Shown piece after piece: positions 1-38,285 of a stretch of DNA of 38,285 bases (positions within the stretch are counted from its first letter, which is position 1; the number at the start of each line of letters is the position of its first letter). The notes under the pieces were generated by a model, which did not search any database, was not told the DNA's origin, and worked only from the letters and a program-made list of their open reading frames with translations. The DNA comes from a virus. Taxonomy: Duplodnaviria > Heunggongvirae > Uroviricota > Caudoviricetes. The DNA lies in the IMG/VR virus record IMGVR_UViG_2645727978_000010, one strand, 5' to 3'. The translations under genes were made by a program, and so were the position numbers.

Positions 1-30
1 GGCGGTGAGGCTACACCGCCATAGTAAATA

Positions 31-1083
31 TCAGGAGCCGATATATTCTGGTTTCATATCTGTCAGTGTCGTTTTATACGCCTCATATAATTCTCCCAGA
101 TGTGGTCGTGCAGCATTCAGCGTATTTTCCAGAGCAATAAATTTTTGTTCTGCTTCTGGATCACCTGATGAAGGCAGGTCATTTATCATCGTCTCAATAC
201 GGGCAATAGCATTGAGACGGTGATGACGCTGAACCACTTTTCCTTTAAGTTCTGTGTAGAGAGCGCCAAGAGTATTTTTATGATCTTCCACTTCCTGGCG
301 AAGTGATGTTGTTTCTCCGGTGCTTTGTGCCTGCTCAATACGTTCACGGAAAGCACTGATCCAGTTTTCCCCGGCATCCTGCTCAATAATTGTTGTTTCA
401 CGTTCCGCACGGCAGGCGGATGTATTTTTATGTTCCTGAACCGGATTAATGATTTTTTCCTGTGGTTCGTCCAGTTCGTCCCGGGTGTACACTCCAAGAA
501 TCACTTCAGGGCAATAAAGGCGCGCCCAGCGTTTCAGTGCCAGATAGGCAAGCTGCTGGCGAGGATCATCGGCCCATAACGTTGAGTTACGTGTTCTGGC
601 CTGCGCCAGAAGTAACTCCAGTACGCGTGGCTTGCTCTCTCCGCGTAGTGTTGCCTGGACGCGAACTCCGATCCCGTTTTCATCGGCCAGCTTCCAGCCA
701 GGTACACGATATTCTTTCCCCTTGTCGTTCTTCCTAATTTCAAATTTCCCGATAATTTTTTCCCACGGCCCGAACCAGTCATATTCAATACGCCCGGTTA
801 GCGGCCCACGAGTACTGATTACGGCATTAACCAGTTGCGCTTCATATCCGAGCACACCATTCACAACGAAAGTTTTCTGAGCTACTGCGTAAGGGTTCAT
901 TTGCCACTGCATCGCCTGCATGGTGATGGCCATGCAGTCTGATGGATTTCCCCGGAGGTGTTCCGGTACAGTAGCCATGCCGGAAGCCATTACCTGGGAA
1001 AATGTCTGAATTGCAGCCAGGGACTGAGGGCTGAAAACCGCAACATTAGAGTTAATATTTTCTTGTTGAGTTAATTCGTTCAT
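31..1083 (-). CDS. recT: RecT/Redbeta-family single-strand annealing recombinase (350 aa)
   Basis: Track ORF; GAGGAAGGA RBS just upstream of ATG (rev-comp of 1084-1100); directly downstream of and co-oriented with recE-like gene; sequence recalls RecT/Bet-type SSAPs; C-terminal ~120 aa is extra relative to the 269-aa K-12 RecT as I recall it. Confidence 0.75.
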   Translation of the reverse strand: MNELTQQENINSNVAVFSPQSLAAIQTFSQVMASGMATVPEHLRGNPSDCMAITMQAMQWQMNPYAVAQKTFVVNGVLGYEAQLVNAVISTRGPLTGRIEYDWFGPWEKIIGKFEIRKNDKGKEYRVPGWKLADENGIGVRVQATLRGESKPRVLELLLAQARTRNSTLWADDPRQQLAYLALKRWARLYCPEVILGVYTRDELDEPQEKIINPVQEHKNTSACRAERETTIIEQDAGENWISAFRERIEQAQSTGETTSLRQEVEDHKNTLGALYTELKGKVVQRHHRLNAIARIETMINDLPSSGDPEAEQKFIALENTLNAARPHLGELYEAYKTTLTDMKPEYIGS

Positions 1084-1094
1084 TGTGTCCTTCC

Positions 1095-36921: not shown

Positions 36922-37766
36922 TGGCGAAAAATGACTTTAAAGCGTTTGCAACTGATCGAAATGCCAATGTTATGTCGCAGGAGGAATGGGAAGCGTTGCC
37001 TGCGCTTTTATCCGGATTTACAGCAGGGAAAGCATCCAGTGCGCAGGTGAACAAAGCCATTCGACAGGCCAGCTTTATTGCTGCAGCTCTGGCCCAGTTT
37101 GTAAGTGACAAAACGCAACGGGATGTGCTTGATAATGGTGATCTGCCCGGTTTTGTTGAATTGCTGGGATCGGGGTTTGCTGTTGAATACCTGAGCCGCA
37201 AGAATCCGTTTGGCGATATCAAATCGGATGGCACTGTGCAAACGGCTCTCGAAAACCTTGGTTTGGGAGAAGGTTCTGCATTACCTGTTGGTGTGCCTGT
37301 TCCGTGGCCTTCAGTCACACCGCCAACAGGCTGGCTGAAATGCAACGGTGCGGCTTTTTCTGCTGAAGAATACCCGGAACTGGCAAAGGCTTACCCGACC
37401 AATAAATTGCCTGATTTACGCGGTGAATTTATTCGTGGCTGGGATGACGGTCGCGGGATTGATACTGGTCGCGCTTTGCTTAATTGGCAGCCACACACAA
37501 TTTTGGACCATGCACACTATATGGAATTATGGACAGGGGACGGACTCGCCGCAGGAAGTGCACGGGAAGGAGTAAACCCAGGAATACTGGCTACATACGG
37601 TGACGGGGGAATAGTTAAAACGGACGAACCCGGTCTTAATGTGCCTTCCTCACTACGAGCTATTAGCTCTCGTAGTGTTAAACGTTATGGTGAAATTAGT
37701 GAAAATGTAGGTACAGAAACTCGTCCTCGTAACATCGCTTTTAATTATATCGTAAGGGCCGCATGA
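36921..37766 (+). CDS. Tail fibre protein with phage tail-collar domain (281 aa)
   Basis: Track ORF 36903..37766 trimmed to ATG 36921 (TGATG overlap); C-terminal motif [42 protein letters not shown] matches the collar-domain signature (LPDLRG). Confidence 0.75.
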
Positions 37767-37861
37767 TGAATAAAGCTGTATTAAATAGCGAACTCATCAC
37801 CACAAAGGCGGGAGACATTACCGTTTACAATTATGATGGTGAGACACGGGAATATATGTAA
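37763..37861 (+). pseudogene. Truncated tail fibre assembly (Tfa-like) gene remnant, 32 codons
   Basis: ATGATG start overlapping fibre gene stop; ORF ends at a TAA supplied by the first bases of the IS66-type terminus (GTAAGCG at 37858). Confidence 0.4.
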
Positions 37862-38285
37862 GCGGCTCGTCAGAACCGTATTGATATTTACTGAGAGCTC
37901 AGATCAACTTTCCAGGGCAACAGATCGCGTACCCGGTTTGCCGGCCAGTCCTGGATATGTTCAATGACGTAGCGCAGCCACTTTTCTGGCTCCACATTGT
38001 TCAGACGGCATGTGCCGATCAGCGAGTACAACACCGCCGCATGTTCACCACCGCTGTCGGAACCCGCGAACATCCAGTTTTTCCGGCCTACGGCCACTCC
38101 CCGTAAGGCGTTCTCTGCGATGTTGTTGTCGATTTCCACCCAGCCATTACTGCAGTACACGTTCAGTGCATCCCACTGTTTCAGCAGGTATGCGAACGCT
38201 TTTGCCGTATCTGAGTGACGCGACAGTGTTTTCATCTGTTGCTGTATCCAGTCATACAGTGACTGCATCAGTGGCGCGGCTCTGG
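37858..38285 (-). mobile_element. IS66-family insertion sequence, partial (runs off window)
   Basis: Terminus begins GTAAGCGGCTCG at 37858 (IS66-family ends start GTAAGCG as I recall); transposase C-terminus encoded on minus strand immediately inside. Confidence 0.7.
37888..38285 (-). CDS. IS66-family transposase, C-terminal fragment (gene continues beyond window)
   Basis: Track ORF 37888..38268, reading frame open to window edge; motif [41 protein letters not shown] matches the conserved IS66 transposase C-terminus. Confidence 0.8.

Follow-up and report, generated by a model that had tools for sequence, protein, structure and literature searches.

Temperate phages that join a lambda-like genome to a contractile tail have a described representative in SEN34 (Brunovirus SEN34, in the 'temperate 26' lambda cluster), which was reported as a lambda-like genome with myovirus morphology and whose virions carry a contractile tail by electron microscopy (PMC5261728). 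SEN34-like prophages are already on record for E. coli O26 (PMC5592225) and for urinary isolates (PMC12945033). Other close relatives of the DNA studied here belong to the Rac family, whose K-12 type has lambda-like H-M-L-K-I tail genes and stfR. Here we analyzed a stretch of 38,285 nucleotides (IMG/VR record IMGVR_UViG_2645727978_000010; hereafter the window, meaning this whole stretch), which a first reading of its letters, the original prediction, had taken for a mosaic prophage with a Rac-like early region, lambda-like lysis genes and a contractile-tail structural module. The window very probably covers some 90% of a lambdoid temperate E. coli prophage ~42 kb long, whose parts have separate evolutionary histories, and judged by sequence comparison this prophage is a mosaic, relative to other phages, produced by module exchange. 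Mosaicism of this sort is a textbook feature of lambdoid phages, and the prophage is an uncharacterized one of an already known type.

Per-segment nucleotide and per-gene protein comparisons were made against Rac-SA53, K-12 Rac, vB_EcoS-666R9 (666R9), vB_EcoM-611R5 (611R5), SEN34, lambda, Mu and P2; the original prediction had proposed such a per-module comparison with Rac, lambda, Mu and P2, and the modules indeed map to different references. Phage records were searched in a collection of 50,697, and bacterial genomes in a set of 5426 complete E. coli genomes. Names for almost every open reading frame (ORF) were taken from the RefSeq annotation of a near-identical prophage in E. coli O111:H2 strain 12A and rechecked by Pfam, PHROGs, PADLOC, Rfam and PDB sequence searches. 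The map opens with a leftward gene block that reaches ~6.6 kb, beyond which the genes run rightward with hardly a break; the window has no tRNA genes. The modules follow the canonical lambdoid order of recombination, divergent repressor/cro pair, replication, Q, lysis, head and tail:

1-5436, minus strand: Rac-type leftward early module (blastn, protein identities, Pfam RecT/Exonuc_VIII/PDDEXK, Rfam)
5437-6900: immunity region distinct from Rac
6901-10214, plus strand: Rac-type replication module (ydaT, O-like initiator, ydaV, ydaW/DUF1627, DUF977/lygF)
10215-13791: cargo slot 1, at the replication/Q boundary
13792-15231, plus strand: late-regulation module (DUF1367, DUF1364, Q-like antiterminator)
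15232-16344: cargo slot 2, in the Q/holin gap
16359-17837, plus strand: patchwork lysis cassette
17855-27067, plus strand: SEN34-type packaging, head and neck module (blastn, Pfam, PHROG)
27071-37766, plus strand: contractile-tail module overall, its proximal part at 27071-33587
33589-33896, plus strand: cargo slot 3, inside the tail operon
37253-37857, plus strand: invertible fiber segment, with an alternative fiber C-terminus and the first ~31 codons of the tail-fiber assembly gene (from 37763)
37858-38285, minus strand: end of an IS66-family element (Pfam DDE_Tnp_IS66, IS66_C), the last 428 bases and non-phage

Positions 1-37272 are 99.9% identical to the 12A prophage, and collinearity with the window, as far as the fiber, extends to whole prophages in 12A and FDAARGOS_1059 (99.9-100%) and in the O55:H7 strain DEC5E (~98%). 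The 12A element spans ~42 kb from a tyrosine integrase to pinE, between yebY and pphA; measured against this element, the window lacks int, xis and ralR at its left end, and at its right end the prophage sequence breaks off after the first codons of the fiber-assembly gene. The integrase and attachment (att) sites, which the original prediction had proposed to seek in flanking sequence, lie beyond the window and were found in the 12A copy. An exact 12-mer direct-repeat search at the ends of the 12A prophage returned nothing because the att copies are imperfect (12A locus 3814-3845 and 45834-45865); when the empty K-12 site was then aligned with them, the 3′ end of the small RNA gene sdsR/ryeB proved to contain the att core, ACAGGAATCGT(A/G)TTCGGTCT. 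At least three relatives occupy the same sdsR-pphA site. The 12A prophage also provides a replacement 3′ end and terminator for sdsR/ryeB. Salmonella phage PhiW104 uses the same sdsR/ryeB target (PMC7380047) and, by analogy with what is reported for that phage, integration may change RyeA/SdsR expression.

The evidence for exchange comes from the partners that each half of the map keeps elsewhere. The SEN34-type late module is seen with at least three early regions: the Rac-like one of the window, a DNA-polymerase/helicase region in 611R5 and a lambda O/P-type region in SEN34. The Rac-like early region, in turn, is seen with three late modules, namely a lambda-type siphovirus module (666R9 and the K-12 remnant), the Rac-SA53 module and the SEN34 type of the window, as expected from the modular exchange first proposed. 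None of the 50,697 phage records covered 80% or more of the first half; four records covered the second half, none of them matching the early region, and no phage record spanned both halves. The whole Q-lysis-terL junction was present in 17 of the 5426 complete E. coli genomes, with either flank alone in many more. Partial matches elsewhere end at 16345, 16703, 17115 and 17855, all gene boundaries. The seams coincide with such boundaries in and next to the lysis cassette and terS.

Reference-phage identity switches sharply near 17.2-18.2 kb, and tandem prophages are frequent in E. coli genomes, so the window might in principle join two adjacent elements, a Rac-like cryptic remnant beside a separate myovirus prophage, or be a chimeric assembly. 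We find this scarcely credible. Each function is represented once, in the standard lambdoid order, and no integrase, repressor set or lysis cassette occurs a second time; in 12A the element forms a single int...pinE unit with one pair of att repeats; and the same junction has been assembled in 17 independent complete genomes.

It is also conceivable that there is no meaningful mosaic at all, and that one established lineage has been inherited and spread as a unit, as the collinear prophages of 12A, FDAARGOS_1059 and DEC5E and the shared sdsR-pphA site of at least three relatives would suggest. Yet the junction is confined to 17 genomes while each flank alone occurs in many more, 611R5 combines a late region 93-97% identical to that of the window with early genes of an unrelated type, 666R9 carries a 94-97% identical early/lysis region with a siphovirus late region, and identity changes abruptly at gene boundaries, all of which makes this explanation improbable. 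The collinear whole prophages in other genomes do imply an established, stable lineage and no fresh one-off recombinant, so that the exchanges are old relative to the lineage. The original prediction had named a single phage genome collinear with the whole window as grounds for giving it up; none exists among the phage records, although whole prophages in E. coli genomes are collinear.

Segment by segment, the genes up to Q are as follows:

31-1083, minus strand: recT, 350 amino acids
1095-4238, minus strand: recE, 1047 amino acids
4339-4614, minus strand: racC-like gene
4689-4859, minus strand: ydaE
4859-5080, minus strand: kilR
5252-5303, minus strand: DicF-like small RNA (Rfam DicF, 55 bits), just upstream of kilR
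5476-5670, plus strand, and 5636-5854, minus strand: small ORFs in PHROGs of unknown function
6154-6573, minus strand: helix-turn-helix repressor (HTH_3)
6670-6912, plus strand: Cro-like helix-turn-helix gene, divergent from the repressor
6909-7331, plus strand: ydaT
7409-8221, plus strand: O-like initiator with a poly-Glu tract
8228-8974, plus strand: ydaV, DnaC/IstB-like (Pfam IstB_IS21)
8997-9758, plus strand: ydaW
14678-15220, plus strand: Q-like antiterminator (Pfam DUF1133, Phage_antitermQ)

By blastn, 1-5436 is 79-96% identical to Rac-SA53 and 76-92% identical to K-12 Rac and 666R9. The Rac-like early region was correctly recognized: the sets recT-kilR and ydaT-ydaW are present, and racC, kilR, ydaT, ydaV and ydaW show 92-98% amino acid identity to K-12 Rac, Rac-SA53 or 666R9 (racC and kilR 95-97% to K-12 Rac and Rac-SA53). 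Across the Rac family, recE/recT, racC, ydaE, kilR, ydaT-ydaW, lygF and DUF1367/DUF1364/Q come in the same order, mostly at 90-98% amino acid identity. The recE and recT products are more diverged, at 52-68%; RecT is 63% identical to the Rac-SA53 protein, both RecE and RecT are longer than the K-12 proteins, and tblastn found no match between K-12 RecT and the RecT of the window. This divergence, far above that of neighboring genes, suggests further exchange inside the recombination module.

Immunity and integration set the element apart from Rac. Tblastn matched neither the repressor nor the Cro-like protein to RacR or YdaS in K-12 Rac, Rac-SA53 or 666R9, and the small ORFs of the region had no match in PADLOC or Pfam; since the repressor/Cro pair and the two small ORFs lack a counterpart in any Rac record, immunity differs from the RacR/YdaS system of that family. 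Rac likewise integrates by IntR at ttcA, whereas the 12A copy uses another tyrosine integrase, at sdsR.

Rac-type sequence resumes in the replication module, where 6901-10214 is 94.6% identical to 666R9 at the nucleotide level and its proteins 93-97% identical. A perfect (AGAGGA)7.5 repeat at 7819-7863 encodes the poly-Glu tract of the O-like protein. The window is 18 bases longer overall than 12A and the O-like gene of 12A is annotated as 18 bases shorter, so the length difference probably sits at or near this repeat. The late-regulation module (13792-15231) is 96.5% identical to 666R9 and 83.8% to Rac-SA53. Two terminator-like hairpins are predicted between the Q-like gene and the lysis genes (15301-15326 and 16235-16256), giving the lambdoid arrangement of a putative Q-family antiterminator upstream of the lysis genes with an intervening terminator.

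The lysis cassette is itself a patchwork:

16359-16700, plus strand: lambda-S-family holin (PF05106)
16704-17180, plus strand: lambda R-like transglycosylase (endolysin)
17164-17556, plus strand: i-spanin (Pfam DUF2570)
17375-17719, plus strand: LysC o-spanin overlapping the i-spanin (Pfam LysC)
17700-17837, plus strand: 45-amino-acid ORF

Its endolysin is 88% identical to lambda R at the amino acid level and 85.7% at the nucleotide level, and a 434-bp stretch of this gene is the sole DNA detectably shared with lambda. By Pfam the holin is a protein of the S family, though its identity to lambda S is just 25%; the spanins, of the overlapping LysB/LysC type, have DNA nearest to SfV (85%). Of the lysis genes first taken for lambda-like, the endolysin alone is close to lambda. 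The stretch 13792-17155, which runs from DUF1367, DUF1364 and the Q-like gene through a membrane-protein gene and the holin to most of the endolysin, is 96.5% identical to 666R9; homology to both 666R9 and lambda stops at 17155, and the holin/endolysin region is 88% identical to 611R5. More broadly, the element resembles lambda in functional gene order, R-type transglycosylase, S-family holin and Q-type late control, and departs from it in recombination, immunity, replication, spanins, head and tail, the lambda tail being flexible and non-contractile.

Downstream, the SEN34-type module contains terS, a Mu-F-like minor head protein, DUF2213, a cement protein, connector proteins and a neck terminator, together with the following genes:

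18409-20031, plus strand: terL
20031-21497, plus strand: portal
23879-24820, plus strand: major capsid protein

Within 17855-27067, nucleotide identity is 95-97% to 611R5 from 18218 and 81% to SEN34 from 18368, and for the N-terminal part of terS the best match is instead Cronobacter phage ES2 (80%). The likeness continues across the whole late region, which at 18218-37274 is 93-97% identical to 611R5 and, from 18368, 76-87% identical to SEN34. For 611R5 and its relatives 606R2, 683R1 and 689R2, identity of 93-97% extends from terS to the fiber N-terminus, while 611R5 differs in having a DNA polymerase, a helicase, another repressor, other cargo between hub and spike and an intact sheath initiator; it also occupies another chromosomal site, with the host genes tadA and pgpC at the record end. 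SEN34 is collinear from terL to DUF2612, mostly at 65-96% amino acid identity and with a shared slippery site, but has lambda-type exo/bet/gam and O/P, another Q and lysis cassette, and a different fiber, cargo and integration site. The usual genus criterion of the International Committee on Taxonomy of Viruses is about 70% or more nucleotide identity over the full genome. Aligned identical bases shared with SEN34 amount to ~14.4 of 38.3 kb (~37%) of the window, well below the level for placement in Brunovirus.

The tail genes follow the neck without a break in orientation:

27071-28216, plus strand: sheath, DUF3383 (PDB: XM1 7kh1, 1e-40; Pam3, 1e-23)
28227-28667, plus strand: tube (Pfam KPP10_Orf10; Pam3 tube protein in PDB)
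28671-29123, with a -1 frameshift extension to 29311, plus strand: tail assembly chaperone (Pfam Phage_TAC_15)
29301-31289, plus strand: tape measure
31289-31876, plus strand: Dit-like protein (Pfam Dit_like)
31876-32178, plus strand: plug (the Pfam list for the proximal tail includes Pam3_gp18)
32181-33242, plus strand: hub (the same list includes E217_GP41)
33246-33587, plus strand: signal-peptide protein, possibly a lipoprotein, conserved in SEN34 and 611R5
33940-34692, plus strand: spike (phi92 spike-protein N-terminal domain PF18352, Apex motif; PDB E217, Pam3, phi92)
34692-35045, plus strand: sheath-initiator gene of 117 codons with an internal TGA (PDB sheath initiators)
35045-36244, plus strand: Baseplate_J wedge protein (Pfam; PDB wedge match)
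36241-36921, plus strand: DUF2612 wedge protein (Pfam; PDB wedge match)
36903-37766, plus strand: tail fiber, Collar domain at residues 130-177

From this gene content the tail is contractile in type, with genes for sheath, tube, sheath initiator, wedge pair, hub and spike all present. Every element that the original prediction named for this module (sheath, tube, chaperone frameshift, spike, J/I-like baseplate, collar-domain fiber) was recovered, and here, as for the Rac-like early genes and the lysis genes, the BLAST and hidden Markov model matches have E-values far beyond chance. A slippery heptamer, T_TTT_TTG, at 29072-29078 leads into the -1 frame, which stays open as far as 29311, a short way into the tape-measure gene. 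The heptamer is kept in register in 611R5, SEN34 and DEC5E.

The module is also, as proposed, unlike the siphovirus tails of lambda and Rac, although the assumption of a single Rac tail type did not survive, since Rac members differ. The virion module of K-12-type Rac is entirely different from that of the window; 666R9, in effect an intact K-12-type Rac, has the same lambda-like H-M-L-K-I tail genes, and besides a short fiber segment the tail proteins of the window matched nothing in K-12 Rac or 666R9. For the late genes of Rac-SA53, Pfam gave just Baseplate_J and portal, and this module, contractile or not, differs from the other two.

Several features recall the contractile tails of Mu and P2 and could point to a lambda-Mu or lambda-P2 hybrid like SfV: the Baseplate_J family is common to P2 gpJ and Mu gp47, the series sheath-tube-chaperone-tape measure...spike-W-J-I-fiber is a common myovirus gene order, and the spanin DNA is 85% identical to SfV. 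The terms J/I-like baseplate and chaperone frameshift in the original prediction also hint at such a link. When every head and tail protein was compared with Mu and P2 by tblastn (E ≤ 1e-3), nothing was found, the only matches being to lysC and the endolysin, and a Mu-like or P2-like origin of the late module was rejected on the lack of structural matches. The best solved homologs are instead tail proteins of XM1 (Vibrio), Pam3 (cyanophage), E217 (Pseudomonas) and phi92, found in PDB searches for the sheath, tube, spike, sheath-initiator and wedge proteins. We consider a Mu or P2 ancestry of the tail very unlikely. Across these four phages the sheath, tube, plug, spike, sheath initiator and two wedges are homologous, a distant, family-level likeness in other hosts and other genome contexts.

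The distal tail differs from the 12A copy. In 12A, an invertible segment (locus 43049-44918), bounded by 20-nucleotide inverted repeats, AAACCTTGGTTTGGGAGAAG, holds two alternative fiber C-termini with their assembly genes, with pinE adjacent. The fiber segment of the window corresponds to 12A locus 44918-44314, inverted, at 99.8% identity; being reversed relative to 12A, it suggests that the switch has flipped. In the window, the remaining half of the segment, like the invertase, would fall past the insertion sequence, and it is the 12A copy that displays the full Pin-type layout. The IS66-family element, whose terminal repeat begins GTAAGCG and whose transposase C-terminus lies at 37888-38268, cuts the tail-fiber assembly gene after ~31 codons. 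Multiple copies of its sequence turn up across E. coli genomes; the exact fiber-IS66 junction was found in none of the 5426. Accordingly, the claim that the whole window is prophage holds up to 37857 and fails for the last 428 bases.

This insertion is one of two lesions in the tail genes. Codon 36 of the 117 in the sheath-initiator gene (34797-34799) is TGA in the window and 12A, and CGA in 611R5, DEC5E and SEN34; this CGA-to-TGA nonsense change falls in the equivalent of T4 gp25 and P2 gpW. With the nonsense codon and the IS66-interrupted assembly gene, not all essential tail genes are intact, and because of these two mutations the copy is probably defective and unable to make infectious particles.

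The arrangement suggests how the parent element would operate. The divergent repressor/Cro pair would control the early operons, and the Q-like protein would read through the terminator 3′ of its gene to yield one long rightward late transcript from holin to fiber. The chaperone may be made in two forms through the -1 frameshift, and DNA inversion would switch fiber specificity. The mosaic itself could have arisen by recombination between co-resident lambdoid prophages, which is well established for this group, with the phage's own RecET as a plausible recombination agent.

Four considerations weigh against this interpretation. First, the DEC5E and 12A prophages are collinear with the window, and the term mosaic holds only against other phages. 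Second, the vB_Eco records used for comparison are PHASTER-predicted prophages, not purified phages. Third, the transcription logic, the frameshifting, the inversion and the role of RecET are all read from DNA sequence. Fourth, read-through of the TGA codon could preserve some sheath-initiator activity in a copy that we take to be probably defective.

Accessory loci had been predicted at three module junctions, and three variable cargo slots were indeed seen. Relative to 666R9, Rac-SA53, 611R5, SEN34 and AVS0790, they are 10215-13791, 15232-16344 together with an insertion point at 17830, and 33589-33896, with the following contents:

10254-10610: zinc-ribbon ORF, slot 1
10882-11460, plus strand: sce7726/cII-like gene (PADLOC cll, 2.4e-28, a P4 cII-like model), slot 1
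11420-12517, minus strand: Beta_protein gene (PADLOC PD-Lambda-2_C, 2.8e-41; Pfam Beta_protein, 7.7e-52), slot 1
12905-13080: sok RNA (Rfam sok, 122 bits), slot 1
13018/13075-13230: mok/hok, a type I toxin-antitoxin system with sok, slot 1
13508-13720: ORF, slot 1
15442-16011, plus strand: membrane protein of 189 amino acids (phrog_11870, a family of unknown function) with several hydrophobic segments, slot 2
15980-16195, minus strand: small ORF, slot 2
33641-33880, plus strand: DUF4282 two-helix membrane protein of 79 amino acids (Pfam DUF4282, 1.2e-10), slot 3

Slot 1 has its edges against 666R9 at 10214 and 13792, and AVS0790 has other genes at 10709-12896. Its GC content is 36-40%, against ~50% elsewhere. 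The stretch 10717-13295, containing sce7726, beta and hok/sok, is 98.4% identical to Rac-SA53 at the nucleotide level, and the sce7726 and Beta_protein genes, which are convergent with a 41-nucleotide overlap, encode a pair 100% identical in amino acid sequence in Rac-SA53. Neither gop nor HigB or HigA-peptidase genes lie next to this pair, so the beta-family protein lacks the system partners that define Gop-beta-cII (P4) or PD-lambda-2. In the literature, sce7726 appeared only within genome-annotation lists.

Slot 2 is delimited by the end of Rac-SA53 homology at 15231 and the start of 611R5 homology at 16345. Its membrane protein had no Pfam or PADLOC match, and Rac-SA53 has toxin genes at this position; Shiga-toxin (Stx) phages, too, carry toxin genes between Q and holin. 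Slot 3 has closely agreeing breakpoints against 611R5 (33574/33897), SEN34 (33587/33897) and AVS0790 (33588/33897), with a conserved terminator-like hairpin at 33896-33917 directly after the DUF4282 gene. The DUF4282 protein returned nothing in PADLOC; together with the neighboring signal-peptide protein, in the middle of the tail operon, it may have an exclusion function. It is possible, if doubtful at present, that the sce7726/beta pair forms a self-sufficient two-gene anti-phage module and that the membrane proteins of slots 2 and 3 are superinfection-exclusion factors. If so, these prophages would use fixed inter-module slots for exchangeable defense cassettes.

The significance of the mosaic outside annotation is slight, and the window offers a clean, well-bounded example of lambdoid exchange. 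In practical terms, the element targets the small RNA gene sdsR, this copy is probably defective, and its slots hold candidate defense or exclusion genes, the cargo genes being the only parts that might merit experiments. For the family, a single contractile-tail module has at least three unrelated early regions as partners, and a single Rac-type early region has at least three virion modules, a caution against naming prophages by a single best match such as 'Rac' or 'SEN34'.

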